Positions 8,901 through 27,664 of a stretch of DNA of 64,000 nucleotides are shown one piece after another. The stretch covers positions 48,189-112,188 of the forward strand of contig JACPBO010000005.1 of the NCBI GenBank assembly GCA_016180285.1, given 5' to 3'. A program made the position numbers and the translations under genes. The notes under the pieces were generated by a model. It worked only from the letters and a program-made list of their open reading frames with translations, was not told where the DNA came from and made no database searches. The stretch's first letter is position 1; every line of letters starts with the position of its first letter. The stretch comes from Candidatus Woesearchaeota archaeon (GTDB lineage: Archaea; Nanobdellota; Nanobdellia; Woesearchaeales; JACPBO01).

Positions 8901-9139
8901 ACCATCTTTTTGTTGCTGACACAGTGCCCAGCAGAGTTTTAGTTTGGAACAATGTTGAAGATGCTGTTGCTGGCAATGAACCAGATGTTGTTTTAGGTGC
9001 AGAAAGTTTAACAGAAAAACTTCCAGAAATTGGAAGAGATAAGCTTTTCTGGCCTTCTGGAATGGACTTTGATGGAAGCTATTTATGGGTTGGAGAATTC
9101 AAGTTTTCAGGCAGAGTGCTGAGATTTGGTGTTGGGTGA
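5942..9139 (+). CDS. Large secreted protein: N-terminal BNR/Asp-box (sialidase-like) domain, Cys-rich linker, C-terminal NHL-type beta-propeller repeats
   Basis: Signal/lipobox-like N-terminus. Asp-box motifs SSDGKTWEQG and SSSDLGKTWAEQG. About ten roughly 50-aa repeats of the form NNRILIWNKLP...PDLVLG, NDRILIWNSFP, VLIWNSFP, FLWNSFP, LFIWDSFP, HVWKNLP, MFVWKKLP, VLVWNNVED. Confidence 0.6.
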   Translation: MFSIMKLTYAHCSLLAILLVAVIFTSSCTKTQREAPFQIPQKPFQPFQEQARQNQMPGNPLIDHNTYITFSSDGKTWEQGSLIRKSASVPDLIQLTRDAGKFKKDDLLVYFVDALTMAGPSTEQVGIISSSDLGKTWAEQGTIKLSGKKNKGGVVDPSIVQLEDGSLRLYFFGPDITSGDPAKQEGKHKVYSAKSSDGMNFVAEEGTRFEDNSLTDPEVIYFNGKWLMYYSVGASSELATSNDGLNFIAVDIEGGNVGGVPGALALDNGVRLFACGKGIATATSTDGVNFKLEQIDILNTDGIVCDPAAVKLADGKYAMIYKAIEGEQKPQSDGQSQQAQSQFCPDGICDDFEIREGVCSKDCAGVEGWQAKKQVQEVQPEQRTQTIQTQVSEPISVKAINSTYKTVSSKPTGWFKTGQDADIMLAGIDFNNAGGSLLFNHPGNVASDGTHLLLADRNNNRILIWNKLPASNIAPDLVLGQKDFYSNNPGKGLDQLNWPVSVSAANGKIVVADTYNDRILIWNSFPTKNGQSADMEIKDIGIGGPADSKDMETAKRRIGWPWAVWTDGKKLIVASTGSASVLIWNSFPIQNNQAADIVLFAGGKFGTPRSIGSDGKHLLIGDHNAKPNNGGQGNFLWNSFPTKDDEPYDFFVFTPFRMGEKIPFQEGPGQLVQGDIMWGGAFTPDGKFIVVTNKLFIWDSFPENENDAADLVVGTSSAPGEKKEGYAFIGGDGSGAAFADGKLYIGLYNGNKIVAYNELPTKADQKPDFAIGSPDIDTNTLGTNYFANNPNPLTDGKSLFVISNFDHIMHVWKNLPDQSGAKPDFVYEFFPPPQHASIVRNSLVIDTGNRMFVWKKLPLNGETPDVTFDGKISNIDIAKINGVAGDEKYFYISTMENKTYVWEDVPAQNTTPKIIINTALGGAGGKGGGSVYSDGTYITTISTFEHMVKIYRVADLISNPKNPPQPMTVGRPGGMFNLPESALVRNNHLFVADTVPSRVLVWNNVEDAVAGNEPDVVLGAESLTEKLPEIGRDKLFWPSGMDFDGSYLWVGEFKFSGRVLRFGVG

Positions 9140-10794: not shown

Positions 10795-11406
10795 TTACTG
10801 AATCTTAGCTATTCCTTCCATTATCTTCTGCCTGAAAATTTCATATCTCCAGTTGCTCAGCTTTTCTCCGTTAATGAAAAATGTAGGAGTTGCATCAACA
10901 CCCATATCTTCAGCTTTCCTCATGTCCCTTGCAACATAAGGCGCTTTTGCCCCTGAATCAAGGCAGTTGCTGAAGTTTTTCATGTCTAATTTTAGTTCTT
11001 TTGCATAGTTTTTCAGATTTCTTGGCGTCGGATCATCCAAGTTTGCATGCACTTTGTCAACAAATTCCCAAAATTTTCCCTGGTCATTCGCGCATTCTGA
11101 TGCTTCTGCTGCTTTAAACGCATATTGGTGCATTGGCAGCGGAAAATGCGCGTATTCCAGCTTTACATCATTTTTGAATTCATCCATTATTTTGTTGATA
11201 GTTGGATGGGCTGCCTTGCATGCAGGGCATTGGAGATCAGAAAACTCTGTTATTGTTATGCGAGCGCTTTCATTGCCTAAAACAGGCCTTGGCGTGTAAA
11301 TTTCGGGGTAATAAGGCTTATTAACATTTTTTAAATAAAAAAACAAAACTACCAGAATGATAAGAATAAAAAAACTATAACTCAGATATTTTTTCTTTAG
11401 CTTCAT
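10795..11406 (-). CDS. DsbA-family thiol:disulfide oxidoreductase, membrane-anchored
   Basis: N-terminal transmembrane segment and the motif [14 protein letters not shown] (CPAC) on a Trx fold with an inserted helical domain. Confidence 0.7.
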
Positions 11407-13832
11407 TTTATCTTTGCCTCATAAAGCCTCATCAAAAGTGAATTCCCGACAACGCTGACGCTGCTGAATGCCATTGCCGCAGCTGCTATGATCGGATTCA
11501 ATAAAAAGCCAGTAAATGGGTATAAGATTCCTGCTGCAATCGGAATCCCGGCTGTATTGTAAAAAAATGCCCAGAACAGGTTCTGCCTTATCTTCCTTAT
11601 TGTATAAGCGCTCAGGTCAATTGCGGTAACAACATCTCTCAGATCATTTTTGATCAAAACAATATTCCCTGTTTCAAGTGCAACATCTGTTCCGGCTCCG
11701 ATTGCAATTCCTATATCTGCCTGCGCAAGAGCAGGAGCATCATTTATGCCATCGCCGACAAATGCAACAATTTCGCCTTTATCCTGCAGCTTCCTGACTT
11801 CCTTTTCCTTGTCTTCAGGCAGCACTTCTGCAAGCACTTTGTCAATTCCGACCTGCCCTGCGATTGCGCCTGCTGTTCTTTTATTGTCGCCAGTTATCAT
11901 AATGACTTCCTTCTTCATCTTATGAAGCTGCTCAACTGCTTCTTTAGAATATTCTTTTAATGTATCCGCAACTGCGACCATGCCAATTACCCTGTTCCTC
12001 AGCGCAACGAGCATCACAGTATTGCCAAGATTCTCAAGCTCGGCAATTTTCGGCTCTATAATCCTTAACGGGAAATTCTCCATCATTTTTCTGTTGCCGA
12101 TTATGATTTCTTCATTTTTGTACTTTGCTTTAACGCCTTTTCCAGGAACTGCAATAAAAGATGAGGCACCGGTAAGTTTTATTTTTAATTCATCGCATTT
12201 TCTTATGATTGCTTCTGCAAGAGGATGCTCTGAGTTTTTCTCTGCAATCCCTGCAAATCTTATGATCTCCCTGTCTGTAATATTTGAAACAGAAACAATC
12301 TTTGTAACTTCTGGCTTTCCTTTTGTCAGGGTTCCTGTTTTGTCAAAGACAATTGCTGTCAGTTTATGCGCTGTCTCCAGTGCTTCTCCTGATTTTATCA
12401 GTATGCCGTTTTCTGCACCTTTCCCGGAGCCAACCATTATGGCAGTTGGCGTTGCCAGTCCAAGCGCGCATGGGCAGGCTATTATCAAAACTGCAATGAA
12501 AATGCTCAATGAAAACACAAAACTTTGGCCAAACAGCATCCAAAGGGCAAATGACAGGACTGCAATCCCGATAACTGTTGGAACGAAATAGCTGCTTACT
12601 TTATCAGCCAGCCTTTGTATCGGCGCTTTGCTGCCCTGCGCTTCCTCAACAAGCTTTATTATCTGCGACAACACAGTGTCTTTTCCTACTTTGGTTGCCT
12701 TGAATTTCAGAGCGCCGTTCTTGTTGATTGTAGCTCCGATCACATTGTCGCCGATTTTCTTTTCAACAGGAATGCTTTCGCCCGAGATCATTGACTCGTC
12801 AACTGCTGAATGCCCTTCAATTACAATGCCGTCAACCGGGATTTTCTCACCTGGCTTTATCAGCACGATATCCCCGGTGACAACATCATCAATGCTTACT
12901 TCAAGTTCTTTCCCGGACCTTATGACTCTTGCTGTTTTTGCCTGCAGGCCCATCAGCTTCTTTATCGCCTCTGATGTCTTGCCTTTCATTACTGCTTCCA
13001 GCAGTTTGCCCAGCAAAATGAATGTGATGATGATGGCTGCTGTATCATAATAAACTCCGCTTTTGAAAACATCAGGAATAAAAGTTACAAGAGCGCTGTA
13101 AATATAGGCTGCGCTTGTGCCCACTGCAATTAAAGTGTCCATATTTGCGGATTTATTTTTTAATGCTATCCACATTCCTGCATAAAACCTTCTTGCTAGA
13201 ATCAATTGCACAGGCGTTGTCAACGCGAACAGGACATAATTTGTGTAAGGCACAATTATCCTGAACCATTCTGGAAATGACAGCACAAAAATAGGAATGC
13301 TCAGCAAAAACCCGAAAAAAACCTCGATTTGCAGCCTTCTTATTTCTCTTTGCCTTGCCTCCTTCTCCTTGTCAGCTGATGCTGTTTCTTCGATCGGCTC
13401 GTAGCCTGCATTCTTTATTGCTTTCTTGATCTCACCAATATTTGCAAGAGCTGTATTAAATCTGACTATCGCTTTCTGATTAACAAGCAAGTCTTTTGAA
13501 ACAACGCCTTTGATTGTGCTTAACGCATCGCTTACTGCGCCGACACAATGCGGGTTGTCCATGCCGATGATTTTTAATTTTATCTCGGAAATGCCTTTCT
13601 CATTTGTTGCGCTTTCTTTTTTCTCTTCTTTTATTATCCCATAGCCTGTTTTTTCTATAGTTTTTTCTATCTCATCCTGATTTATTTTATTTTTATCAAA
13701 TTCAACAGCTGCCTTTTCAGATGCAAAATTCACGCCGGCATTGATTATGCCCTTTGCTTTTTTCAGCGATTTCTCTATTGTGTTTGCGCAGCTTGCGCAG
13801 TGCATGCCCGTTATTTTTATTGTTGTTTTCAT
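11403..13832 (-). CDS. copA: Copper-translocating P1B-type ATPase
   Basis: Two N-terminal heavy-metal-associated domains ([13 protein letters not shown] and [11 protein letters not shown]), transmembrane CPC ([13 protein letters not shown]), DKTGTLT phosphorylation site and GDGINDAP hinge. Confidence 0.9.
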
Positions 13833-16261: not shown

Positions 16262-16546
16262 TTATGCCTTTACAAACAGCCCGCACCAGCACATTGGCTG
16301 CATTCCTGGCCTGGGCCTAAGCCATGTTTCATGAATGAAGAAGTTACAAGGGCAGATAAGCTCCATGTCTTTTTCAAATGTTCCATCTCTCAATCTGCAC
16401 GGGCACAGCTTCAGGCCGTGCTTTTGCTCATTTGACAATACGCCGTCTGCAACAATCTCAACATGCTTTCTGTCAGGGTTCAGCTTAAACGATCCGTTCT
16501 TTTTACTGAAAACATCCCAGACCCCGATCAATTCTTGCTTGTCCAT
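16262..16546 (-). CDS. Ferredoxin:thioredoxin reductase catalytic-subunit-like (FTR-like) protein
   Basis: LCPCRLRDGT...LICPCNFF...CWCG follows the CPC-x15-CPC-...-CxC arrangement of FTR beta-type Fe-S disulfide reductases. Confidence 0.6.
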   Translation of the reverse strand: MDKQELIGVWDVFSKKNGSFKLNPDRKHVEIVADGVLSNEQKHGLKLCPCRLRDGTFEKDMELICPCNFFIHETWLRPRPGMQPMCWCGLFVKA

Positions 16547-16706: not shown

Positions 16707-16967
16707 TCACCTCATGAATGGGTTGCCGAATGCAGCGAATGCAATTACAGCATGAAGCATTACAGATGCTGCTAAAAGCCACCAGTAATAGCAGTGATAT
16801 TTGTAGATTTTCATGTAAATCTTTGAATTGCTCAATGCTGCTGATTTTATGCCAATAATGCACCTGCATGAAAATAGAATCAAAAATAAAAAAACTATGT
16901 TTGCCCATCCCAATACATAAACGAACTTTATTCCGAGCGAAGGGTCTATTGCCATTTTACTCGACAA
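16707..16967 (-). CDS. Small membrane protein
   Basis: An 86-aa protein with two or three transmembrane segments. Confidence 0.3.
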   Translation of the reverse strand: MSSKMAIDPSLGIKFVYVLGWANIVFLFLILFSCRCIIGIKSAALSNSKIYMKIYKYHCYYWWLLAASVMLHAVIAFAAFGNPFMR

Positions 16968-17421
16968 TTATCGTTCCTGTAAATGCTGGGTTAAGATGGT
17001 CGTGGTATTTCCATGAGCCTTTGCTGTTGAATGTGAAGGAAAAGGACTCATCCTGAGCCAAGCTCCTGCATGCATCAAATTTGCTCCCTATGCAGCCCCC
17101 GCTTTCGGGATAAACTGAATGAGTTGGGTGCACAGCTGATGCTGGCCAATGGGCACTGCCGTCTTTATTTGTAAAAACAACAGTTTCACCTGCGCTGATA
17201 GCCAATGTCTTTGGGCTAAACCCGGATGATGTAATCTCGACAACATTCATTGCTGCTGATGTTTGCTGCTGCCCGGCTGTCTGCCCGCTGACATCAGTTA
17301 CCTGCTGTCCGGTTTGCTGATTTCCTGCTGTTCCGCTAGTTGTTGTCTGCGCAGCGCATCCTGCTATTAAAACCAATGCGGCCAAAAACAAAACAAAATA
17401 AATTCTTTTCATTTTATCCAC
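16957..17421 (-). CDS. Cupredoxin-like lipoprotein (the Cys ligand of the blue-copper site is replaced)
   Basis: Lipobox LIAGC and a Gln/Thr-rich linker. The C-terminal beta-sandwich segment WKYHDHLNPAFTGTIIV resembles the plastocyanin/azurin C-terminal strand. Confidence 0.45.
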   Translation of the reverse strand: MDKMKRIYFVLFLAALVLIAGCAAQTTTSGTAGNQQTGQQVTDVSGQTAGQQQTSAAMNVVEITSSGFSPKTLAISAGETVVFTNKDGSAHWPASAVHPTHSVYPESGGCIGSKFDACRSLAQDESFSFTFNSKGSWKYHDHLNPAFTGTIIVE

Positions 17422-17887: not shown

Positions 17888-18298
17888 TTATGAATTTGGT
17901 AAAATTTTATCAAGCTCTCCAGCCACATAAGCTACGATTTCTGAGCAGAGATTTTTTCTTTCAGGGCTATCGAACTTATAATCAGCAGTAAGCAGGTTAC
18001 AACAAGTTACACTGTACTTTTCTTCAAATTTATCATAAATATGCTTGCTTAAGTCATTAGCTTTTTTAGAGTCTTCACTTTTCTCTGATCTGCCATAATG
18101 TAAGCCAATAGCCATTGTAGCCCCAGAAATTGCTCCACAAATGCATCCACTTCCCCCAATTCCTGCTCTAAAGCCTGTTGCAGAACGCAAAACTTCATCT
18201 GTAACTGGGTGTCCTGTTTGTTTCATTGCATGCAATACTGCTTCTGTACAACTATATCCTTCAAGATACAGTTTTTTTGCTGATTCAGCTAAACTCAT
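17888..18298 (-). CDS. C_GCAxxG_C_C family putative redox protein
   Basis: YSCTEAVL...GSGCICGAISGA...CCNL spacing is typical of that family. Confidence 0.7.
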   Translation of the reverse strand: MSLAESAKKLYLEGYSCTEAVLHAMKQTGHPVTDEVLRSATGFRAGIGGSGCICGAISGATMAIGLHYGRSEKSEDSKKANDLSKHIYDKFEEKYSVTCCNLLTADYKFDSPERKNLCSEIVAYVAGELDKILPNS

Positions 18299-18852
18299 TT
18301 TTTACCGCCTTTGTGTTTTGCATTATTCTTCCACAACTTTATGATCCATGAATAAACTAAAACAATCAAACCGATTAATGATATCACATAAAGCGCATTC
18401 AGGAAATTCCAATACCATGCATAACTGCCACTCATCATCCCATATCCCATCATGTTGCCTCCAATATTGCCGCTCATCATGTTAAATGAATTGCCCATCA
18501 TGCCGCCCCCCATCATATTGTTTCCCGCCATCATTGACATCATAGACATCATTCCCTGGCTTGTTTCACCGCAGTAAATTGATTTTGCCATCTGAATATG
18601 CATCTGCTTGACTGCAGCAGAATCTTCGCCGCCCATCATAGTGTGCATCAGCTCATGCGCTTCTCCAGAATGCATCTGCTCCATGTAATAATCACCCATA
18701 GCCTCAAGCTGCGCATCCGTTAGTTTGCTGCAGCTAATGTTGGAATCGATAAGCTGCTTTGTTTCATTGAAGTTTTCTTTCGCTAAAACAAAGCCGGTGT
18801 TTAATGCCAAAACCAAAAATACTGCCAAAAATACTGCAAATGATATTTTCAT
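18295..18852 (-). CDS. Secreted Met/Gly-rich protein with C-terminal transmembrane anchor; candidate Cu(I)-binding Met-motif protein
   Basis: Signal peptide followed by MSMMSMMAGNNMMGGGMMGNSFNMMSGNIGGNMMGYGMMSG and HxxMxxM-type motifs (EAHELMHTMMGG). Confidence 0.45.
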   Translation of the reverse strand: MKISFAVFLAVFLVLALNTGFVLAKENFNETKQLIDSNISCSKLTDAQLEAMGDYYMEQMHSGEAHELMHTMMGGEDSAAVKQMHIQMAKSIYCGETSQGMMSMMSMMAGNNMMGGGMMGNSFNMMSGNIGGNMMGYGMMSGSYAWYWNFLNALYVISLIGLIVLVYSWIIKLWKNNAKHKGGKK

Positions 18853-19367
18853 TTTCCCCCCATGGCCATTAATGCCCTTTTCTTTTTATTTTTTTCTCTT
18901 TTTTGCTTAATTTTAGTCTTTTTTTCTCCCCTGCTTTTGTAAAGCATTATTGCAATGCCTGCGGCATTAGAGAGTATTCCTATTAAAATAAACCAAATCG
19001 TATAGCCTGAAAGGGAAGCCAGCGCTGATACTCCTATGAAAGGCAGTATATTCACAAGATAATGGCTGCAGCACAATATCATGCTTGTTGCGGATAATCC
19101 GCCAGATGCCACTGTTGTTGTGCATCCAATTGCGCTTTTATGCCTCAGATAAGTGAAAAGGCCAATCTGAAAGCCAAAGCCTCCGATCAGCAAAACAAGC
19201 AAAGGAGAATATTTTTTGATCTGCGCAACAGCCATGCTTGGAAAGCCAAGGCTCCAAAGCACTATGAAATTTAACAGTAAAATCAATAAAATCCCAATGA
19301 TTCCATTTCTTACTGCCCTGTATTTAATGTCCATTTTCATTCTCCTTGATTTAATGTTTTTTAGCAA
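18849..19367 (-). CDS. Polytopic membrane protein, unknown
   Basis: Five transmembrane segments and a basic C-terminal tail. Confidence 0.3.
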   Translation of the reverse strand: MLKNIKSRRMKMDIKYRAVRNGIIGILLILLLNFIVLWSLGFPSMAVAQIKKYSPLLVLLIGGFGFQIGLFTYLRHKSAIGCTTTVASGGLSATSMILCCSHYLVNILPFIGVSALASLSGYTIWFILIGILSNAAGIAIMLYKSRGEKKTKIKQKREKNKKKRALMAMGGK

Positions 19368-21365: not shown

Positions 21366-22190
21366 TTAGCTTACAGCTGCTGCTGATGACGATGCGTTTA
21401 TTATTGTGTTGTTTGCAATGTTTTTATAAACGACTTTCAGCACGCTCAAATCCCTGAAAATGTAGCTGCCGTCACCCTCAACTGATCCGACCTGCGGCCA
21501 AACTACTGCAAGCGAAGGATAGAGTCCAGCATCCTTTGACAATATGACTGTAGGCACAAATGTAATGTTGTATTTTCTAATCAGCTCCTTGCCTGTTTCT
21601 GATGAAATATCCGCGTATCTTTCTGCTGAAATGGCCATTCCAAAGTTTTGCGGATTTGAAAGTATTAGCTTATGGATTGTTACATTGTAGCAGGTTTTGC
21701 AGCTGCTGTCTGTCAGATATGTCAGCTCTACAAAGCCCTCTGCTTTTGATTTTGCAACATCAAAATAAGGGGGATTGATCAGCCTCAGGACGTAGCTGCC
21801 GTCTTTTTCCACACTCCCGATATCGCTCCAGACGCCTGTTATCTCTTTATATTGCGATGCTTCTTTTGAGAATACTAATGCCGGGAGCTTTAATATCTTG
21901 TATTTTTCAATTAATTGTTTTCCCTCTGCGCTGCTGGCATCAATTGTCTTTTCGCTTTCAAAGAAAATGCCTAAATTCTTTAGGGCAGGCACCAGGCCTG
22001 TCAAATCGCTGCAGCTATCGCATGAAGATGCTTTGAGGTAAATTGAAGAAATGCCTTTTTTAACAACTATTTGGCTGTTTATTCTGAATGTTATGAAAAT
22101 GTTTGTTAAGAACACTATCATGATAAGGGCAACAAGCAACAACTTGATATTTGTAAAGCCGAATTTTCTTTTTTTATTTTTTTCTTCCAT
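21366..22190 (-). CDS. Membrane-anchored protein with two tandem thioredoxin-like CxxC domains (PDI-like a-a' arrangement)
   Basis: Internal duplication of about 100 aa. Repeat 1 carries SSCDSCSDL...LPALVF...DIGSVEKDGSYVLR. Repeat 2 carries SSCKTCYNV...VPTVIL...QVGSVEGDGSYIFR. Both have the cis-Pro loop. Confidence 0.5.
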   Translation of the reverse strand: MEEKNKKRKFGFTNIKLLLVALIMIVFLTNIFITFRINSQIVVKKGISSIYLKASSCDSCSDLTGLVPALKNLGIFFESEKTIDASSAEGKQLIEKYKILKLPALVFSKEASQYKEITGVWSDIGSVEKDGSYVLRLINPPYFDVAKSKAEGFVELTYLTDSSCKTCYNVTIHKLILSNPQNFGMAISAERYADISSETGKELIRKYNITFVPTVILSKDAGLYPSLAVVWPQVGSVEGDGSYIFRDLSVLKVVYKNIANNTIINASSSAAAVS

Positions 22191-22207: not shown

Positions 22208-22669
22208 CTAAATCCTGCAGCCTGTTAATTCCGAAAGCCTTTCAAAGCTCTGCACTTTTTCGTATCGTTCATTGTTTATTATCCATGTCGGAGTCACTTT
22301 TATATCTGGCCCTTTCTGGTAATCCCTGTAATCAACATACTTGAATGAGTTCCCGAACATTTTGGCCTGCTGCTTTGTGTACTGGCACCATTCAATTGCG
22401 CCATACATCACTGCTCCCTTTTCTTTTAAGCATTTTGCAAAATCATCATAGGCGCCTGGCTTTGATGCAGAATAGATGCTGTATGCCACAATAGCTATTA
22501 TTATAACAGCGATAACTGACAGGATTGTTATTTTATTTCTTTTTTTAGATGCTGCATTTTCTTTTCTTTCCTTATCCAGCTGCTCTCTCTGCTGCCTTAG
22601 CTGCTCTGCTTCCTCACGAAGCTTCTGCTGCCTTTTTTCATCCATCTCCTTTTTGCTTAATTCTTCCAT
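22208..22669 (-). CDS. Membrane-anchored thioredoxin-like protein (CxxT variant)
   Basis: Charged cytoplasmic N-terminus and one transmembrane segment, then YGAIEWCQYTKQQ, which resembles VKOR-associated Trx domains (YGAxWCxxC) with a single Cys. Confidence 0.45.
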   Translation of the reverse strand: MEELSKKEMDEKRQQKLREEAEQLRQQREQLDKERKENAASKKRNKITILSVIAVIIIAIVAYSIYSASKPGAYDDFAKCLKEKGAVMYGAIEWCQYTKQQAKMFGNSFKYVDYRDYQKGPDIKVTPTWIINNERYEKVQSFERLSELTGCRI

Positions 22670-22695: not shown

Positions 22696-22908
22696 TCAAA
22701 ACAACTCTTTAACTGAATTAATTTTCTCAACTGCATTGTTTGCGCCTGTATTTTCCGGCCCGATGACTCCGCAGCCGCCGCCAACTGGCCCGCTCGGTGG
22801 AGCGCTGCCGCTGCCATAATCGCCGCTTGAGCATCCTGCAACAAAAATTAAGCCAACAATCAATAACAACATTAATGCTGTTTTCATATTAGTTTTTTCC
22901 ATTTTCAC
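22696..22908 (-). CDS. Small lipoprotein with internal PVGGGCG motif
   Basis: Lipobox LIFVAGC followed by a Gly/Ser-rich stretch and VGGGCGV. Confidence 0.4.
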   Translation of the reverse strand: MKMEKTNMKTALMLLLIVGLIFVAGCSSGDYGSGSAPPSGPVGGGCGVIGPENTGANNAVEKINSVKELF

Positions 22909-22911
22909 ACC

Positions 22912-23112
22912 TCAACATCCGCCTACCATTCCGCTGGATGAGCTTGCTGCTGGCGCAGATGCTGCTGCACCTGAAGATGTTGCAGTTGCGCCTGAAACTG
23001 CAGCTGTTCCGCTGCTCAGCTTTGTTTTTATTGTGTTCAGCTCAAATGCCTGCACAACTGATACGAGCAATAAAACGCCCAATACAATTGCTATTATTAT
23101 GTTTTTGTCCAT
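22912..23112 (-). CDS. Small secreted protein ending in MVGGC-COOH (paralog family member 1)
   Basis: Signal peptide with predicted cleavage after VQA, an Ala/Ser/Thr-rich linker and the C-terminus SSSSGMVGGC directly before the stop. The stop codon was verified on the reverse strand. Confidence 0.45.
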   Translation of the reverse strand: MDKNIIIAIVLGVLLLVSVVQAFELNTIKTKLSSGTAAVSGATATSSGAAASAPAASSSSGMVGGC

Positions 23113-23140
23113 TTTTTACCTCCTCGATTATTCTTTAACT

Positions 23141-23434
23141 TCATTTTACTTTTTTAATCAATTTAACCAATAAATAAACAATCAAAACCAAAACAGCCAA
23201 ATACAAAACCTGTCCAATTAAGTATAAGCTGCTATAGCCGCCCATGTAGCCGGCAGTAATTGAATTTCCTGCCATCATTGAGCTGCCTAAATCGCTTACA
23301 GCCATGCCTGTTGCAGCTGGAGCCCCACTAGCTGCCTCGCTGTGATTATCCATTCCAGCGCATGCCAAAACCGGCAACGCAGTTAATGATAGCGCTAATA
23401 AAAAAAGCACAATCAATAAAAAGGACTTTTTCAT
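23141..23434 (-). CDS. Small Met-rich protein with signal peptide/lipobox-like N-terminus and C-terminal transmembrane anchor
   Basis: VLACAGMDNHSEAASGAPAATGMAVSDLGSSMMAGNSITAGYMGG followed by a transmembrane segment. Confidence 0.4.
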   Translation of the reverse strand: MKKSFLLIVLFLLALSLTALPVLACAGMDNHSEAASGAPAATGMAVSDLGSSMMAGNSITAGYMGGYSSLYLIGQVLYLAVLVLIVYLLVKLIKKVK

Positions 23435-23707
23435 TTAGCAGCCACCCACCATTGTTGGCGCGACAGATCCTGAACTGCTGCTTTGCCCGATTCTCGCAGG
23501 AATAGTTCCATGCATTTCATAATTCATTTTTTCGTTCTCTGTCCATCCTGTTGTGTCGAGCTTGCCGCTTGCTGCGGCGCTTACGCCTGTTGCAAGGCCT
23601 GCTGCAGGCACCTTGGACCTGATATCCATCAATTGGAATGCCTGAATAAACGAAACTATCAGGATAGCTGACAGAAAGACAACAATTATTGTTATTTTTT
23701 TGTCCAT
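23435..23707 (-). CDS. Small secreted protein ending in MVGGC-COOH (paralog family member 2); start taken at MDKKITII
   Basis: Its N-terminus is homologous to that of the 22912..23112 protein (MDKxIxI..VL..L.VS..QAF.L). C-terminus SSSSGSVAPTMVGGC. The ATG lies 1 nt after the stop of the upstream gene. Confidence 0.45.
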   Translation of the reverse strand: MDKKITIIVVFLSAILIVSFIQAFQLMDIRSKVPAAGLATGVSAAASGKLDTTGWTENEKMNYEMHGTIPARIGQSSSSGSVAPTMVGGC

Positions 23708-23708
23708 C

Positions 23709-24422
23709 TTAACAACCTCCAACCATTGCCCCGCCAGATGATGTTGCTCCTTTTTCTATTCCCCTGTATTTGTTTGATGCCAAATTGATGTAATTCAGCT
23801 CAATTCCCTTGGACTGCAATATCGCAGCTTTCTGCGTCATTATGCCGGGGAAAAACAATGTTTTCCATTTTCCAAGCTCTTCCAAAATCTCGTCATTTGT
23901 GAATTCACTTGGATGCTTGCTTACCAAATATTTTGCCAATCCGCGCATTGCACCGCTGTGGGCGCAGCCGCATGCAGCAGCCCCATTTTTAAAGATAATT
24001 GCCTCAGCTCCGCAGCAGTATTCGCAGCTTATCTGCGTGCCAACAGCTATATAGCGCTGCAAAGCATCCCCTGTTAATGTAATTGATCTATCATAAACGC
24101 TCATCTTATTTATCGCTGCATTCGCCTTTCTTGCATCATTCGGAGAAATATCATCATAGCTTAAGCCAAGTTCTGCTCCATAAATCTTTGGAATTCCTGT
24201 CGGAATAACAGAACCCTGCAGATTTGATGAGCTTACTGCTGTGCTGCCGGAGCTTGATGCTGTTGAAATGCCTGTTGCTGCAAATCTAGATCCAATGCTC
24301 GATATCTGCCATTGGTTAAAAATAACAAGCAGAGCGATAACAACTATCAGCCAAATGCTCAATTTGTTTATCGTTTCCTTTAAATTTGCTTTTTTGTTCT
24401 TAGATTCCATTTTTAATTTCAC
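23709..24422 (-). CDS. Membrane-anchored Cys-rich protein ending in MVGGC-COOH (paralog family member 3)
   Basis: Transmembrane anchor, Ser-rich linker, SCEYCCGAEAIIFKNGAAACGCAHSGAMRG and C-terminus KGATSSGGAMVGGC. Confidence 0.45.
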   Translation of the reverse strand: MKLKMESKNKKANLKETINKLSIWLIVVIALLVIFNQWQISSIGSRFAATGISTASSSGSTAVSSSNLQGSVIPTGIPKIYGAELGLSYDDISPNDARKANAAINKMSVYDRSITLTGDALQRYIAVGTQISCEYCCGAEAIIFKNGAAACGCAHSGAMRGLAKYLVSKHPSEFTNDEILEELGKWKTLFFPGIMTQKAAILQSKGIELNYINLASNKYRGIEKGATSSGGAMVGGC

Positions 24423-24471: not shown

Positions 24472-24993
24472 TTATTCTTTGCAGCAATCAATTATTTTCT
24501 TTACGATGTTTGCAAGCTTCTCCTTCCAGCTGCTGCTTTGAGTCTGGATCATTTCGCCTGATTTTATTAATTTCAGATTCAGGCTCCAAAATAAAGTGTA
24601 AAGGTCAAATGCATTCTTGAAAAACATCTGCGCTTTCGCATCGTCTTTTTTGCTTAAATGCTTATTCCCGACTTCAATCAGGCGCATGCTTGCCCCGAGC
24701 AGATGCTTGCTTATGCACCACACTTCGCCTTCAGGCTCTTTAACTATCTCCTTAAGCAGATTTTTTCTTAGCTCTCTTATTTGATTTAAAAGCTCAATGT
24801 AGCTCTTCTTATTCGTTTTCATTGCGCTGAAATACATGTGCTCTTCTATGCTTATAAGATTCATCAGCGCTATGCTCAGGTCTTCATCTGACGAAAGGTC
24901 AACTTTGCCTTTACTTTTAAGTTCACTTGCCCTTTTTACAAGCTCATTCACATCCATCTTAATGTTTTCAGCCATCATCTTATCGCCAGCCAC
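24472..24993 (-). CDS. hypothetical soluble protein
   Basis: A 173-aa protein with no motif. It is co-directional with the cluster and overlaps the upstream gene by 19 nt. Confidence 0.3.
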   Translation of the reverse strand: MAGDKMMAENIKMDVNELVKRASELKSKGKVDLSSDEDLSIALMNLISIEEHMYFSAMKTNKKSYIELLNQIRELRKNLLKEIVKEPEGEVWCISKHLLGASMRLIEVGNKHLSKKDDAKAQMFFKNAFDLYTLFWSLNLKLIKSGEMIQTQSSSWKEKLANIVKKIIDCCKE

Positions 24994-25487
24994 ACTATTG
25001 CGCTTGTTATTGCCAATAATGCCAAAATAAAAGCAATTGTCTGGAACGGAAATATAGCCTTGTTTTTGTTGATCTGCTTCACATTGCTGCTAATGAACAA
25101 TCCTGCATAAACTAAAATGCTGCCCGCTATTATGCCCAATAATAATTTATCTACTCCAAAAATCCTGCTTGCATTGAATAATCCTCCAAAATAAAATGAG
25201 ATTATTGTTGCAGCAAATATCAATATTGCAACAATTTGGCCTTGGAACGGGATGTATTTCTTCTTCAGCATGTTGTTGAACCATAATGCAGTTGAAATTA
25301 TAAATGCGCCGACCCACAGCCCGACAATCATATCATCAACGCCGTAAAATCTCGTGATAACGATTCCTGCGCCGACAGCAGCTGTGCATAGCGGGCAATG
25401 CGCGCTTACAAGCGGCACAAATGCAGTTAGCGAAAAGAACAGCATCAACATAAAAATCAGGCTTCTTTTCATTTTATTTTCACTCAT
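24975..25487 (-). CDS. Polytopic membrane protein with HCPLC in the first transmembrane segment (possible membrane thiol-oxidoreductase partner)
   Basis: Five transmembrane segments and SAHCPLCTAAVGAG in the first. Confidence 0.4.
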   Translation of the reverse strand: MSENKMKRSLIFMLMLFFSLTAFVPLVSAHCPLCTAAVGAGIVITRFYGVDDMIVGLWVGAFIISTALWFNNMLKKKYIPFQGQIVAILIFAATIISFYFGGLFNASRIFGVDKLLLGIIAGSILVYAGLFISSNVKQINKNKAIFPFQTIAFILALLAITSAIVWLAIR

Positions 25488-25933
25488 TAAGGCGGAAGGG
25501 GCGTCTTTGTTCCCATATCAGTATATCTTTGATCAACATATTTTGTGTCTATGTATTCCCTTGTCTCTTTCAATGACATGCCTTGCTTAAGCAGCTCGTC
25601 TGCCTTTAATGCTATGGCAACGCATGCAGGGCAGTCAATTGCAGCATGATCCTGCCAGCTTCCGTCTTCATTTATGAAGCATTCCTTGAGGCTGTGCATT
25701 ATCGGGATTGTTTTTCCCCTGTGCTGCATTTCATGCATGAAATCATCCTGCCTGTCAAGCGCAATGCTGTAAGCCAGCTTGTTTTTATAATTATTCATCA
25801 CAAAACTCGGCAGCATGTTTTCATTTGCAAGCATTGGCATTTGTTTTTTTGATGTGTTTAGTATGATTGCCAATGAAAAAATTACCAATACAATCAATGC
25901 CAATCCGGCAATCAGCTTTGTTTTTGCATTCAT
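25487..25933 (-). CDS. Membrane-anchored protein with CPAC motif
   Basis: Transmembrane anchor, then HAAIDCPACVAIALK. Confidence 0.35.
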   Translation of the reverse strand: MNAKTKLIAGLALIVLVIFSLAIILNTSKKQMPMLANENMLPSFVMNNYKNKLAYSIALDRQDDFMHEMQHRGKTIPIMHSLKECFINEDGSWQDHAAIDCPACVAIALKADELLKQGMSLKETREYIDTKYVDQRYTDMGTKTPLPP

Positions 25934-26214
25934 TTTAGCTTATCCAAGCATTTCTTGTATTGATCAGGGTGATGCCCCATATGCTCTCTCCATTCTTGAT
26001 CTGTGTAACCTTCAGGAGTTGCGCAAATATCTTCCTTGTTTTGGCTTTGAATTGCCTTATTGTAATTTGCGCCGAAATAGTTTTTTTGCGTTGTGAAGCT
26101 CAATACGCTCCATATCAGTGCTGCGATTAAAACAAATGCCGCAACATACAATATTATTTGGTCATATTTGATTTGATCGTGTTTTTTTGCCATATTAATG
26201 CAGAACAAGGCCAA
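25930..26214 (-). CDS. Small membrane-anchored protein with His-rich tail
   Basis: Transmembrane anchor, then EWREHMGHHPDQYKKC. Confidence 0.3.
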   Translation of the reverse strand: MALFCINMAKKHDQIKYDQIILYVAAFVLIAALIWSVLSFTTQKNYFGANYNKAIQSQNKEDICATPEGYTDQEWREHMGHHPDQYKKCLDKLK

Positions 26215-26305: not shown

Positions 26306-26845
26306 CTAAATCGCCTTCTTTAAGAAAACCTGATTTGTCTTTCCCTTGACAACTTTTTTAATGAGGCCTTTCTTTTCCAAGCCTGCAAGCACAACAGAGA
26401 GCTTTGCCTTTGACATGTCTGTCCTTATTCTCAATGTTGCCTGGGTTATTCCGTCCTGCTCTTTAACTGATTTTATTGCCTTTTTCTCATCATCATCAAG
26501 GCCGCTGAGCAGAATATCAAATTTTTCCACTTTAAATTTTTCATCCTTTGTTTCTTTCAATGCCTTGATGACTTCCTGCTGGCTTTTCTCAAAGAAAATC
26601 AGATAAAAGCCAAGGCTTGCCACTGCAAGCATTATTGCCGCGCCAACATATATTGGGATCTGGGCTTTTGCTTTTTGAGTGTGAGGGCATATGTTAGGAT
26701 CAGTAGGGCATGTTCCCCCTGTCGATGCATAAAAATCGATCTGCGCCTGATAAGCCCTGTCAATGCTGATCTTTATGAAAAAAAGAACAGAGAGCATTAA
26801 AACTGCAAATATTATAAGCGCCCATCCTAATACTTTGTTGTTCAT
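26306..26845 (-). CDS. Membrane-tethered winged-helix (MarR-like) transcription regulator; first gene of the long minus-strand train
   Basis: The start is taken at MNNKVLGW (26845). There are two transmembrane segments with a CPxDPNICPH loop. The C-terminal wHTH is ITQATLRIRTDMSKAKLSVVLAGLEKKGLI. Confidence 0.5.
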   Translation of the reverse strand: MNNKVLGWALIIFAVLMLSVLFFIKISIDRAYQAQIDFYASTGGTCPTDPNICPHTQKAKAQIPIYVGAAIMLAVASLGFYLIFFEKSQQEVIKALKETKDEKFKVEKFDILLSGLDDDEKKAIKSVKEQDGITQATLRIRTDMSKAKLSVVLAGLEKKGLIKKVVKGKTNQVFLKKAI

Positions 26846-26947
26846 GAGAACAGGTAAAATAAGCTTATTTAAAAAACTTGTGAATATGCTGGCTGAATAA
26901 AAAACCGAAGGCTTTTTAAACAAATCCCTTTTTCCAACAATAGTAAA

Positions 26948-27664
26948 ATGGCTGAAAAGGAAACAGAACTCAAAATCAAGAAGAAAAAGTGGCATTCAAT
27001 CATAGCTCCAAAAATATTCAGCGAGCAGGTGATAGGCGAAACACTGGTTACTGATGTCAAAAGCCTGCTTAACAGGAGTATTTCAGCAAATCTGATGAAT
27101 CTTACTGGCGACCCAAAAAACCAGAATATAAACATGAAGTTTGCTATCAACAGGGTAGAAGGCAACAAGGTTTTTACTGATGTTATGGGATATATAATGA
27201 ACCCTGCTTCGATAAGAAGGATGATAAGGCGCGAAAAGGAAAGGGTTGATGATTCTTTTGCATGCAAAACACTTGACAACAAGATGATAAGAATAAAGCC
27301 ACTAGCGATAACAGTGGCATCAACAAAGAGCTCTATTCTTTCAAAATTAAGGAAGAAAATGCAGGCCCTGATCAAGGAAGCTGTTGCGAAGCTGAATTAT
27401 GAATCTCTTCTTTATGAGATTATTGACAATAAGCTGCAAAAGAGGGTGAAGGCTGATTTGTCAAAGGTTTATCCTGTTAAAAATTTTGAGATTAAAATGA
27501 TGGTTATTGAAGAGCAGAGAAAACAGAAAGAAGAAAAAGAGATAGAGCTAAAGGAAGAAAAGCCTCAGGCAGAGCTGGAAGGGAGCAAGGAAGAAGCAAA
27601 CGCCCAGCCGAAAGAAGAGGCAGCTGAAATTGAAAATAAAGCTGAGGAAACAGCTGAAGCGTAA
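26948..27664 (+). CDS. rps3ae: 30S ribosomal protein S3Ae (eS1), with acidic/Lys-rich C-terminal extension
   Basis: KKKKWHSIIAPKIFSEQVIGETLV...FTDVMGYIMNP matches the archaeal S3Ae family. Confidence 0.85.
   Translation: MAEKETELKIKKKKWHSIIAPKIFSEQVIGETLVTDVKSLLNRSISANLMNLTGDPKNQNINMKFAINRVEGNKVFTDVMGYIMNPASIRRMIRREKERVDDSFACKTLDNKMIRIKPLAITVASTKSSILSKLRKKMQALIKEAVAKLNYESLLYEIIDNKLQKRVKADLSKVYPVKNFEIKMMVIEEQRKQKEEKEIELKEEKPQAELEGSKEEANAQPKEEAAEIENKAEETAEA

Follow-up and report, generated by a model that had tools for sequence, protein, structure and literature searches.

Proteins ending in a C-terminal MVGGC pentapeptide form a conserved gene cassette in DPANN archaea and CPR bacteria

The window, i.e., the whole stretch of DNA that was analysed (64,000 nucleotides from a DPANN archaeon, Candidatus Woesearchaeota), contains three minus-strand genes whose products end in the same pentapeptide, MVGGC, with cysteine as the very last residue. 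The genes and their tail codons are:

23709..24422, minus strand: large MVGGC protein, 237 aa from the GTG at 24422, ending in SSGGAMVGGC
23712..23726, minus strand: tail codons of the large protein, ATG GTT GGA GGT TGT, then TAA
23435..23707, minus strand: small MVGGC protein, type b, 90 aa, ending in SVAPTMVGGC
23438..23452, minus strand: tail codons of the 90-aa protein, ATG GTG GGT GGC TGC, then TAA
22912..23112, minus strand: small MVGGC protein, type a, 66 aa, ending in SSSSGMVGGC
22915..22929, minus strand: tail codons of the 66-aa protein, ATG GTA GGC GGA TGT, then TGA

These exact endings, claimed in an earlier interpretation made from the letters of the window (the sequence-only reading), are confirmed and lie far beyond chance. 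The whole window contains 1062 stop-to-stop segments that are 30 aa or longer, of which these three alone end in Gly-Cys. The pattern [MLQIV]VGGC occurs nowhere else in the window in any frame, and a pentapeptide common to three ORF ends never appeared in 200 shuffles of the window. In the NCBI annotation, the large protein has its start codon at 24410 (ATG, 233 aa) and not at 24422 (GTG). The GGAGG inside the large-protein tail codons lies just upstream of the ATG of the next gene, and the 66-aa gene has a GGAGGT Shine-Dalgarno sequence 7 nt upstream of its ATG. The genes had been described as adjacent and packed with 1-nt gaps. Strictly, they are not adjacent, a Met-rich gene being interposed between the 90-aa and 66-aa genes, and the 1-nt gap is found at the junction between the large and the 90-aa gene only, the other gaps being 0, 28 and 3 nt.

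The large protein begins with a K-rich segment predicted to be cytoplasmic and a single TM helix that ends in FNQWQI. A variable linker leads from there to a conserved helical domain (~150 aa), which a Gly/Ser linker connects to MVGGC-COOH. The type b protein, homologs of which were found in 36/80 related loci, consists of a TM segment, the stretch D-T-T-G-W-T-E-N-E-K-M-N-Y-E-M-H-G-T-I-P-A-R, a linker and MVGGC-COOH, with the terminal Cys as its sole Cys. In the type a protein, which likewise has a single Cys, the TM segment is followed by an Ala/Ser/Thr linker and MVGGC-COOH. The N-termini of the two small proteins are homologous, as had been proposed (46% identity over 35 residues). The suggested paralogy of all three proteins thus holds for the small pair, while a relationship between the large and small proteins beyond the tail is weakly indicated (hhalign E 0.015).

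The ending is retained well outside this locus. The form [MQL]VGGC closes 115 of 120 close homologs, and GGC closes 108 of the 150 representatives of 50%-identity clusters, i.e., distant homologs, among which the variant tails MVG[SADE]C also keep the terminal Cys. Rare variants carry residues after the Cys (GGCG, GGCS), and the tail in CPR/Patescibacteria takes the form LPxMVGGC. Selenocysteine was not found in place of the terminal Cys. GGC is the commonest C-terminal tripeptide of ORFs over 1 Mb of related loci (175 occurrences vs 51 for the next). In six-frame translation, Cys follows [MQ]VGG in 181/191 cases, with a stop directly next in 178 of these 181. The tail codons are fully degenerate, every synonymous codon and all three stop codons being in use. 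The ending, conserved and yet written in degenerate codons and stops, is under selection at the protein level. Homolog searches found the ending in thousands of relatives, which decisively counters the possibility, raised in the sequence-only reading, that it is unconserved or a frame artefact.

The genes carrying this ending form a cassette. In 77/80 related loci, the large gene with its Cys cluster is accompanied by one to three small MVGGC genes, normally immediately downstream of it, and the same order is seen in CPR bacteria. When each small protein is read from the start closest to its TM segment, the terminal Cys is the only Cys in 87/92; the motif M-x3-M-H-[GP] (e.g., EKMNYEMHG, EEMMARMHP) occurs in 28/92. 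A Met/His pattern such as M-x3-M-H is typical of Cu(I) sites. In some loci, a tail-less large protein occurs with tailed small partners, an arrangement that fits arms acting in trans. The cassette spreads over DPANN archaea and CPR/Patescibacteria, the taxon labels of the homologs being metagenome bin assignments, and is present in 394 of the species-representative genomes scanned; two homology searches returned 1980 and 1005 protein clusters. Pfam and NCBIfam scans of the three MVGGC proteins gave nothing above noise, and a full-text literature search for "MVGGC" returned no relevant paper. The cassette is undescribed, widely conserved in ultra-small prokaryotes, and lacks a family model.

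The Cys cluster that the sequence-only reading had noticed in the large protein (CEYCCG...ACGCAHS) is confirmed; its five Cys and His155 do not vary across the family:

23955..24026, minus strand: invariant Cys/His cluster, C133-E-Y-C136-C137 ... C151-G-C153-A-H155-S156

H170 and M159 are also invariant in the family alignment, and representatives of 50%-identity clusters retain the Cys/His residues down to E about 1e-30. Five invariant Cys, two His and one Met (M159) are more than a redox CxxC enzyme needs. Together with the tail Cys, the five cluster Cys make an even number. The structure model of the large protein has a pLDDT of 86 (about 76 in the tail) and contains a long TM helix. Foldseek against the PDB gave no match and a profile search of PDB sequences returned noise only; the sole fold match is CcmH, a thiol-disulfide oxidoreductase (PDB 2HL7). 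This fold resemblance suggests a folded helical domain in which the invariant Cys5-His2 cluster (CxxCC...CxCxH...H) would sit on a CcmH-like core. The only domain fusion found among longer homologs is an FKBP domain, confined to one branch and uninformative.

The proposed secretion of these proteins, with cleavage of a signal peptide, is doubtful. Conserved residues flank the proposed VQA|F site on both sides, the N-terminal segment of the large protein is one long helix in the model, and about 20 family members have cytoplasmic N-terminal extensions of 20-90 residues with a DCC motif. Consequently, an uncleaved N-in/C-out membrane anchor is favoured as the predicted topology of the MVGGC proteins.

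The genes surrounding the cassette in the window are:

11403..13832, minus strand: P1B-type ATPase with HMA domain (GMHCASC), CPC, YN motif and MxxSS in AMAFSS (Pfam E1-E2_ATPase, HMA)
18295..18852, minus strand: Met-rich secreted or anchored protein, MMSMMSMMAGNNMMGGGMMG..., in 19-21/80 loci
18849..19367, minus strand: polytopic membrane protein with intramembrane CC (MILCCSHYL), cluster in 39 loci including the window
21366..22190, minus strand: membrane-anchored two-repeat thioredoxin-like protein with CxxC motifs SCDSC and SCKTC, in 19-20/80 loci
22208..22669, minus strand: membrane-anchored thioredoxin-like protein, weak Pfam Thioredoxin_4 match (E 0.069), in 9-10/80 loci
22696..22908, minus strand: small lipobox protein with internal PVGGGCG, lineage-specific, in 0/80 loci
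23141..23434, minus strand: interposed Met-rich small membrane protein, lineage-specific, in 0/80 loci
24472..24993, minus strand: cytoplasmic helical partner ending in KKIIDCCKE-COOH, in 30-34/80 loci
24975..25487, minus strand: 4-TM membrane protein with invariant A-x-C-P-x-C-T directly after the signal peptide
25487..25933, minus strand: PCYCGC-domain protein, C-terminal half of PF13798 with CPAC motif (43.5 bits vs cutoff 25)
25930..26214, minus strand: small conserved membrane protein travelling with the cassette, in 20-24/80 loci
26306..26995, minus strand: membrane-bound winged-helix regulator (Pfam DUF7343, E 1e-10)

The DUF7343 regulator, which has an extracytoplasmic GGTCPTDPNICPH loop, is usually the first gene of the cassette (cluster covering 59 loci including the window), and the CPxC 4-TM membrane protein is the most conserved non-regulatory partner. 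The partner ending in DCCKE has no Pfam, NCBIfam or PDB match and is represented elsewhere by a membrane variant ending in CC[KR]xW. The polytopic protein with the intramembrane CC is a frequent partner, whose bacterial counterpart carries MIACCLHNF. The two-repeat thioredoxin-like protein directly follows a small MVGGC gene in CPR bacteria and several DPANN loci, with bacterial homologs in loci L081 and L083. Two downstream thioredoxin-like proteins had been proposed; their CxxC motifs are visible, while the Pfam thioredoxin matches, including those of the two-repeat protein, fall below threshold. The PCYCGC protein is an occasional partner (cluster in 8 loci including the window) with a weak match to the CYCXC (seleno)protein model; the one relevant paper that a full-text search returned treats PCYCGC as a domain of unknown function. 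The large MVGGC protein was considered as a divergent PCYCGC/CYCXC protein on account of its CGCxHS motif and rejected, with an hhalign probability of 0.4% against the PCYCGC protein of the window; no MVGGC protein matches the PF13798 or CYCXC profile. The PVGGGCG lipoprotein and the interposed Met-rich protein, both named in the sequence-only reading as companions, are without counterpart in the 80 related loci and therefore lie outside the conserved system.

Copper recurs in this neighbourhood. By established motif rules, the motifs of the ATPase at 11403..13832 are the signature of a CopA Cu(I) exporter. A P-type ATPase lies within 10 kb in 34-38/80 loci, about half of a set in which many loci are incomplete, and is also found in CPR loci. 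In genomes of ~1 Mb with one or two such genes, linkage by chance is estimated at a few percent. Further copper-type or metal-type genes include a weak DUF411/CopG-like CGHC protein in 33 loci (score below the curated cutoff), a cupredoxin-like lipoprotein in the window, YHS/TRASH with an HMBD-ATPase in CPR loci, and BlaI/CopY-family repressors upstream of the cassette, whose neighbours include metal- or redox-type regulators. Redox-type partners are represented by DsbA-like proteins, a CcdA-like fusion in CPR loci, and FTR-beta-like and C_GCAxxG_C_C proteins in the window. The idea that the ending is a Cu(I)-binding tag agrees with this conserved neighbourhood (CopA-type ATPase, Met/His motifs), while copper binding itself is what we infer from it.

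The MVGGC proteins are most likely extracytoplasmic, membrane-tethered Cys arms that would bind Cu(I) or relay thiol chemistry. The preferred version, in which the arms capture and transfer Cu(I) or another thiophilic metal, is put forward tentatively, as a whole at a little under an even chance. Each product would be tethered by its N-terminal helix on the outer face of the cytoplasmic membrane, with a single reactive Cys at the end of a flexible Gly/Ser/Ala-rich linker, (LP)x-[MQ]-V-G-G-C-COOH. The terminal thiolate would capture Cu(I) or another thiophilic metal exported by the neighbouring CopA-type ATPase, possibly assisted by the Met at -4 and, in many small members, by the upstream M-x3-M-H motif. 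By swinging, the arms would then deliver the metal to the large protein's Cys/His cluster or collect it there, and their thiols may be kept reduced by the CPxC membrane protein, the thioredoxin/DsbA-like proteins and the cytoplasmic CC-motif proteins. Against this, one Cys and one Met per arm make a weak site, and binding would need pairing of arms or a partner. Moreover, simple metal binding does not call for a Cys placed exactly at the C-terminus, a placement that hints at modification or at entry into the pocket of a partner.

Because CcmH is the only fold match and redox partners are many, redox chemistry could be primary instead of metal transfer. The large protein would then be a CcmH-like extracytoplasmic CxxC oxidoreductase and the terminal Cys a resolving or shuttle thiol forming mixed disulfides, in an envelope disulfide-stress defence analogous to Scs, with copper as the stressor and not the ligand. 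Pa-CcmH is likewise a helical protein anchored by a single TM segment, with CxxC in an inter-helix loop (PMC3884852), and the Scs system ties copper to redox homeostasis (PMC10907172). The even Cys count of the large protein also suits a thiol-disulfide relay, as do the partners (CxxC thioredoxin repeats, DsbA-like and CPxC membrane proteins, CcdA-like fusion, FTR-beta-like, C_GCAxxG_C_C). The relay is nevertheless judged somewhat unlikely. The sequence bears no similarity to that of CcmH; a relay leaves unexplained the Met/His motifs found in the small proteins, the conserved Met at -4, and the two invariant His and one invariant Met beside the Cys cluster; and proteins of 65 aa that have one Cys and are otherwise unstructured make unusual redox carriers.

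MVGGC-COOH could also be the recognition element of a new, dedicated DPANN/CPR system in which the terminal Cys is processed by an enzyme, acts as a covalent carrier or is an attachment point; for example, the Cys-cluster protein may load it or the invariant CPxC membrane protein may modify it. Such a system is rather improbable. Should it exist, the ending would represent either a C-terminal signal of a new class or a thiol cofactor borne by a protein, unlike any known sorting, lipidation or carrier system.

The second hypothesis of the sequence-only reading, here taken to mean that the ending is a processing or anchoring signal whose terminal Cys is modified by an enzyme (archaeol or acyl thioether, carboxyl methylation) or attached to the surface layer or a host cell, is distinctly unlikely. 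A strict sequence at the exact terminus does resemble recognition motifs; moreover, V-G-G-C comes close to the lipobox consensus, [LVI][ASTVI][GAS]C, and DPANN have AliA-type lipidation (PMC12462473). However, the known sorting signals and lipoboxes are read beside a membrane-embedded helix, the lipobox coming straight after the h-region of an N-terminal signal peptide, whereas MVGGC follows a hydrophilic linker with nothing after it. Position -2 is Gly, disallowed in the lipobox; rare tails extend past the Cys (GGCG, GGCS); and no sortase-, Lgt- or AliA-like gene lies within the cassette. The two SAM-dependent methyltransferases nearby, to which the sequence-only reading had tentatively assigned the Cys modification, are solidly assigned by Pfam (UbiE/TPMT-like). 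However, a homolog of each occurs in 4/80 related loci, the de novo cluster holding both covers 9 loci including the window, and they are absent from bacterial versions of the cassette; they are thus not conserved neighbours, and the assignment loses its footing.

A covalent sulfur carrier, in which the arm Cys would hold a persulfide or thiosulfonate like the SoxY GGCGG or the DsrC C-terminal arm and the large domain would be the loading enzyme, is very improbable. The [VI]-G-G-C at or near a flexible C-terminus resembles the SoxY arm that carries Sox intermediates (PMC5336275), rare variants end in GGCG, and hosts are common in sulfidic groundwater and sediment, judging by sample names. Against these points, the conserved neighbours, which are metal-related, include none of the sox, dsr, rhodanese, TusA or sulfur-oxidoreductase genes, and the small proteins have neither the SoxY fold nor a SoxZ partner. 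To our knowledge, respiratory sulfur metabolism is generally absent from DPANN and CPR organisms. Finally, chance, a frame artefact or a DNA-level element (ribosome-binding site, terminator) encoding MVGGC has a negligible probability: GGA-GGN in the tail does spell GGAGG, with GGA enriched when another gene follows (65% vs 40%), but the final gene in each series still encodes MVGGC with codons at background frequency, conservation of the motif extends over two domains of life, and neither the full codon and stop usage nor the shuffles agree with it. The codon enrichment behind a Shine-Dalgarno explanation is real and cannot account for the conservation.

A large part of microbial diversity belongs to DPANN archaea and CPR bacteria, whose surface proteins are mostly without functional assignment. 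In hosts with a single membrane and little biosynthetic capacity, a simple motif, one Cys at the very end of a tether, is linked with copper export and with thiol chemistry of the envelope. Cu(I) binding by the arms would make them an extracytoplasmic copper buffer or chaperone of a new type, common to two domains; if the terminal Cys is processed or loaded, it would be a new terminal signal. The MVGGC family merits a curated model and is tractable for peptide-level biochemistry.

Several known systems share features with the cassette. As stated in the sequence-only reading, the ending matches no described sorting signal. Nor does it match any curated family in Pfam or NCBIfam. Like sorting signals and lipoboxes, it is a short, strict terminal motif on differing surface proteins, and LPxMVGGC superficially recalls LPXTG. 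However, in PGF-CTERM, PEP-CTERM, LPXTG and GlyGly-CTERM the motif precedes a TM helix and a basic tail, and a dedicated sortase goes with it; MVGGC proteins have none of these, and neither an NCBIfam sorting-domain match nor a sortase-like neighbour was found. CaaX/Rab-type prenylation, which uses a Cys with three residues after it or a CC/CXC terminus together with a prenyltransferase and ICMT, does not fit a Cys that is single and last, near UbiE/TPMT-like methyltransferases that are not conserved partners. HMA/CopZ metallochaperones, with a ferredoxin-like fold and MxCxxC, differ in fold, the MVGGC proteins being helical without an HMA match and HMA occurring only in the neighbouring ATPase.

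The carrier arm of SoxY has the sequence GGCGG. SoxY presents a single reactive Cys in [VI]-G-G-C on a mobile C-terminal peptide to the active sites of extracytoplasmic partners (PMC5336275), as the MVGGC proteins would. SoxY, however, is a folded, Tat-exported beta-sandwich that is paired with SoxZ and ends in GGCGG, whereas the MVGGC carriers would be membrane-tethered and mostly unstructured, with Cys last, Met/Gln at -4 and no sulfur-oxidation genes nearby; Pfam and NCBIfam gave no SoxY/SoxZ match, and the GGCGG motif is absent. CcmH combines a three-helix-bundle periplasmic domain on a single TM anchor with an LRCxxC motif, in place of which the large protein has C-E-Y-C-C. The large domain is about twice the size of CcmH and bears three further invariant Cys, two His and an arm ending in Cys. 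No ccm/nrf genes or cytochromes c occur among the 30 largest neighbour clusters or in CPR loci.

Copper proteins of the envelope offer the remaining comparisons. CopG holds a tetranuclear Cu cluster by CxCC and Met (PMC7558416). It is soluble, with a thioredoxin fold and without homology to the large MVGGC protein, which is helical, probably membrane-anchored, and bears a terminal arm. Both are linked to CopA and have clustered Cys (CxCC vs CxxCC and CxC) with Met and His, and the large protein could hold a multinuclear Cu(I)-thiolate cluster. The Scs system combines a DsbD-like membrane reductase with thioredoxin-fold proteins, some of which bind Cu(I), and serves copper tolerance (PMC10907172, PMC8900818). 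Although Scs consists of thioredoxin and DsbD folds only, without a terminal Cys arm or CEYCC...CGCxHS, and has no homolog among the MVGGC proteins, the mix of partners around the cassette is similar, bringing together envelope thiol-redox functions and copper.

Three open reading frames on the minus strand at 22.7-24.4 kb share the ending MVGGC directly before the stop codon, as the sequence-only reading had described. These are:

23709..24422, minus strand: large MVGGC protein, C-terminus ...SSGGAMVGGC*
23435..23707, minus strand: 90-aa small MVGGC protein, C-terminus ...SVAPTMVGGC*
22912..23112, minus strand: 66-aa small MVGGC protein, C-terminus ...SSSSGMVGGC*

The six frames of the window contain 1062 stop-to-stop segments of 30 aa or more, and only these three end in Gly-Cys. 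No [MLQIV]VGGC was found elsewhere in the window in any of the six frames, and 200 shuffles of the window gave no pentapeptide common to three ORF ends. The tails are encoded differently (ATG GTT GGA GGT TGT TAA in the large protein, ATG GTG GGT GGC TGC TAA in the 90-aa protein, ATG GTA GGC GGA TGT TGA in the 66-aa protein), which argues for selection on the peptide. The NCBI start of the large protein is the ATG at 24410. The packing with 1-nt gaps claimed for the three genes holds for one junction only; a Met-rich gene (23141..23434) separates the 90-aa and 66-aa genes.

A hypothetical protein from a Candidatus Woesearchaeota genome matches the large protein with 100% identity. Homologues of the large protein form 1980 clusters at E <= 1e-3, none of which has a Pfam domain, and those that are named come from DPANN archaea. 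A homologue search for recurrence of the ending, proposed as a check by the sequence-only reading, found [MQL]VGGC in 115 of the best 120 matches (MVGGC 111, QVGGC 3, LVGGC 1), while the other five end earlier, at ...GIEKA/T. The linker preceding the motif varies in both length and sequence. Searching 1.84 billion cluster representatives exhaustively with a profile yielded 317 clusters; 108 of the best 150 end in GGC, and the remainder are mostly fragments or keep the terminal Cys (MVGSC, MVGAC, MVGDC, QVGSC). In the divergent branch that these clusters represent, the motif is longer, LP-x-[MQ]-V-G-G-C. Members that stop at ...NKYRGIEKA/T without linker and tail (proteins P0048, P0053, P0065, P0107; loci L010, L011, L018, L029, L040, L063) adjoin tailed small proteins or are a second copy beside a tailed large protein. 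Two proteins labelled Desulfobacterales bacterium (P0221, P0273; 456-471 aa) fuse an N-terminal FKBP-type peptidyl-prolyl isomerase to a branch of the large family and retain the MVGGC end.

Relatives are encoded at 394 loci in a scan that used one genome per species, and 80 of these loci were fetched (1.0 Mb); the taxonomic labels are those of metagenome bins, a few of which are clearly mis-binned. Across 170 tail copies in related loci, all synonymous Val, Gly and Cys codons and all three stops occur. In six-frame translations of 84 loci and the window, Cys follows [MQ]VGG in 181 of 191 occurrences, a stop directly follows the Cys in 178 of these 181, and no tail variant with TGA for Cys was found. 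A chance or DNA-level origin of MVGGC is excluded by the degenerate codons and stops, the [MQ]VGGC-stop counts, the shuffles and an analysis of tail codon usage. The Gly-Gly codons are often GGA-GGN, which places GGAGG ~7-8 nt upstream of the next ATG (23709..23726 and the 170 homologous tails). GGA is used in 65% of tails followed by a further MVGGC gene, compared with 40% where the gene closes a series and a background of 37%; given this enrichment, the tail codons seem also to act as a Shine-Dalgarno site in translational coupling.

The motif is not confined to the large protein. Among ORFs of at least 25 aa in the 80 loci, GGC is the commonest C-terminal tripeptide (175 vs 51 for the next). 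At least two GGC-ending ORFs are present in 77/80 loci and at least three in 15/80, the additional ones being small, on the same strand and directly downstream of the large gene. Three types of small protein can be distinguished:

Plain type (TM segment, Ala/Ser/Thr linker, tail), like the window 66-aa protein: 53 copies
Type with D-x-[ST]-G-W-T-E-x-E-K-M-N-Y-E-M-H-G-T-[IL]-P-A-R, like the window 90-aa protein: 22 copies
Type with G-E-T-Y-E-E-M-M-A-R-M-H-P-D-Q, absent from the window: 17 copies

Both motif-bearing types contain E-x-M-x3-M-H-[GP]. When each small protein is taken from the start closest to its TM segment, the terminal Cys is the sole Cys in 87 of the 92. The end of the TM segment is conserved as Q-x-[FV]-Q-[IL] in small proteins and as FNQxQI in large ones. 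The window 90-aa and 66-aa proteins are homologous at the TM region (46% identity over 35 residues), and a relationship between large and small proteins is weakly detectable.

In the confident AlphaFold model of the large protein (pLDDT 86.3; domain >90), residues 12-49 form one long helix, the linker after it is disordered, residues 65-215 make up a helical domain, and the tail is modelled with intermediate confidence. Invariant residues of the protein include C133, E134, Y135, C136, C137, C151, C153, H155, S156, M159, R160 and H170. As the N-terminus before the helix is Lys-rich, sequence suggests that the Cys domain and the tail should face outward. Signal-peptide cleavage after VQA or IQA, as originally predicted, is disfavoured. 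Residues on both sides of the site are conserved, the hydrophobic run of ~16-17 residues continues as a helix in the model, and long N-terminal extensions, typically with a DCC motif, occur in 13/92 small and 7/78 large family members. An uncleaved anchor is favoured for these reasons. The extensions are cytoplasmic and typically carry D-C-C-[KE] (MDCCENTEQK, MVKDCCKKD; loci L004, L013, L019, L024, L038, L040, L048, L049, L051, L053, L062, L065, L076 and others); absent from the three window proteins, they echo the DCCKE terminus of a cytoplasmic partner.

De novo clustering of all ORFs of the loci, together with comparison with the window proteins, revealed a recurrent gene order. It starts with a membrane-bound winged-helix regulator (DUF7343), the large protein and the small MVGGC proteins, continues with a CGHC protein (weak DUF411/CopG-like match) and a 4-TM protein whose signal peptide is immediately followed by an invariant CPxC, and ends with a protein terminating in ...DCCKE(W) (cytoplasmic or membrane), an intramembrane-CC membrane protein and a small membrane protein.

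Loci containing each cluster (de novo clustering, 80 loci + window); with so many short contigs, each figure is a minimum
Regulator: 59
CPxC membrane protein: 47
CC membrane protein: 39
P-type ATPase: 38
CGHC protein: 33
DCCKE protein: 30

Near the cassette lie the P-type ATPase, Met-rich proteins, DUF5676, DsbA-like and thioredoxin-repeat proteins, and ArsR/PadR regulators; the thioredoxin-like and DUF411-like assignments score below curated cutoffs. The window ATPase has an HMA domain and CPC, YN and MxxSS motifs, which mark Cu(I) exporters. An alternative upstream pair consists of a BlaI/CopY-family repressor and an M56 BlaR1-like protease. The adjacent methyltransferases, suggested earlier as partners, each have a homologue in only 4/80 loci, and the flanking Met-rich gene and PVGGGCG lipoprotein recur in 0/80.

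Several neighbours have features of their own. The DCCKE partner (24472..24993, minus strand; clusters 6 and 14, loci L004-L077) has a second strictly conserved Cys terminus, ...KK[IL][IV]DCCKE(W)-COOH, in ~24 of 30 copies, and its membrane-protein variant ends in ...K[IL][IV]xCC[KR]xW; this vicinal Cys pair belongs to the cytoplasmic side of the cassette. The 4-TM partner (24975..25487, minus strand) would begin H-C-P-L-C-T if its signal peptide were cleaved after VSA. Its C-P-x-C is invariant in 30 diverse homologues, including Altiarchaeota and Magasanikbacteria, and a fold search with it was uninformative. The DUF7343 regulator (26306..26995, minus strand), usually the first cassette gene, has an extracytoplasmic GGTCPTDPNICPH loop and is a candidate one-component metal or thiol sensor. 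The neighbour at 25487..25933 (minus strand) corresponds to the C-terminal half of Pfam PCYCGC (PF13798) and has a weak hit to the NCBIfam model 'CYCXC family (seleno)protein'; the large protein was compared with it as a possible PCYCGC-domain relative, and that kinship was rejected. The DsbA-like gene (10795..11406) matches a 'thioredoxin-like (seleno)lipoprotein' family below cutoff (76 bits vs 190). In both cases the family name indicates redox-active Cys positions at which other organisms have selenocysteine. The same 16-kb island encodes, on the minus strand, a ferredoxin:thioredoxin reductase catalytic beta-chain-like protein (16262..16546), a cupredoxin-like lipoprotein (16957..17421) and a C_GCAxxG_C_C putative redox protein (17888..18298), a concentration of Cys-motif proteins unusual for a genome this small. 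A secreted 1065-aa protein (5942..9139, plus strand), which has NHL repeats and a region weakly resembling glycoside hydrolase 43, lies just outside the island and is unrelated.

The named members of the divergent LPxMVGGC branch come from CPR/Patescibacteria (Parcubacteria, Buchananbacteria, Paceibacterota, Jacksonbacteria) and Woesearchaeota. In two CPR genomes, a BlaI-like repressor and an M56 protease precede a large protein and a small TM protein, both ending in ...LPNMVGGC*. These are followed by a multi-CxxC thioredoxin-repeat protein homologous to window 21366..22190, DUF1573/cupredoxin proteins, CPxC membrane proteins, a DUF411-like/CcdA-like fusion, a YHS/TRASH protein and an HMBD P-type ATPase. 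Two domains of life thus share the cassette and, with it, a copper/thiol context. DPANN and CPR/Patescibacteria (CPR loci L081-L084) have the cassette in full, down to the small tailed partner and the thioredoxin-repeat protein, which implies either transfer between the domains or an adaptation that ultra-small episymbionts have in common.

A strictly conserved terminal Cys is carried on a flexible tether by a Cys/His-cluster protein and by one to three minimal partners, in a copper-export/thiol-redox neighbourhood. The leading interpretation, tentative and at somewhat under even chances, is that the arms supply thiolate ligands on the extracytoplasmic side. There they would bind Cu(I) or some other thiophilic metal and exchange it, in either direction, with the large protein's cluster, while redox partners would maintain them in the reduced state. 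Several observations support this interpretation: the ATPase is linked to the cassette, Met occupies position -4, M-x3-M-H motifs are present, and Met-rich, cupredoxin or CopG-like proteins are neighbours. In addition, the ligand set (five Cys, two His, one Met) is larger than a redox enzyme needs and recalls the CxCC-plus-Met copper cluster of CopG (PMC7558416). The main rival, about half as probable, is that the proteins could form a pure thiol-disulfide relay around a CcmH-like oxidoreductase. The analogue would be the Scs system, which ties copper homeostasis to redox homeostasis (PMC10907172). Metal capture and the relay are not mutually exclusive. A terminal-Cys processing or carrier system of a new type is unlikely, at roughly one chance in five. 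Still less probable is a processing or lipidation signal: apart from the lipobox-like motif and the occurrence of AliA in DPANN (PMC12462473), nothing speaks for it. A sulfur carrier of the SoxY kind is the most doubtful of these readings; the SoxY arm (PMC5336275) is similar to the tail, yet the neighbourhood lacks sulfur genes.

Neither the large nor the small proteins have a model in Pfam-A (2025) or NCBIfam (June 2026), their source annotations read only 'hypothetical protein', and a full-text literature search found no description of the family; the MVGGC family and its terminal motif are accordingly new. Precedents exist for the probable kind of function, both in a Cys on a swinging arm and in envelope copper/thiol defence.
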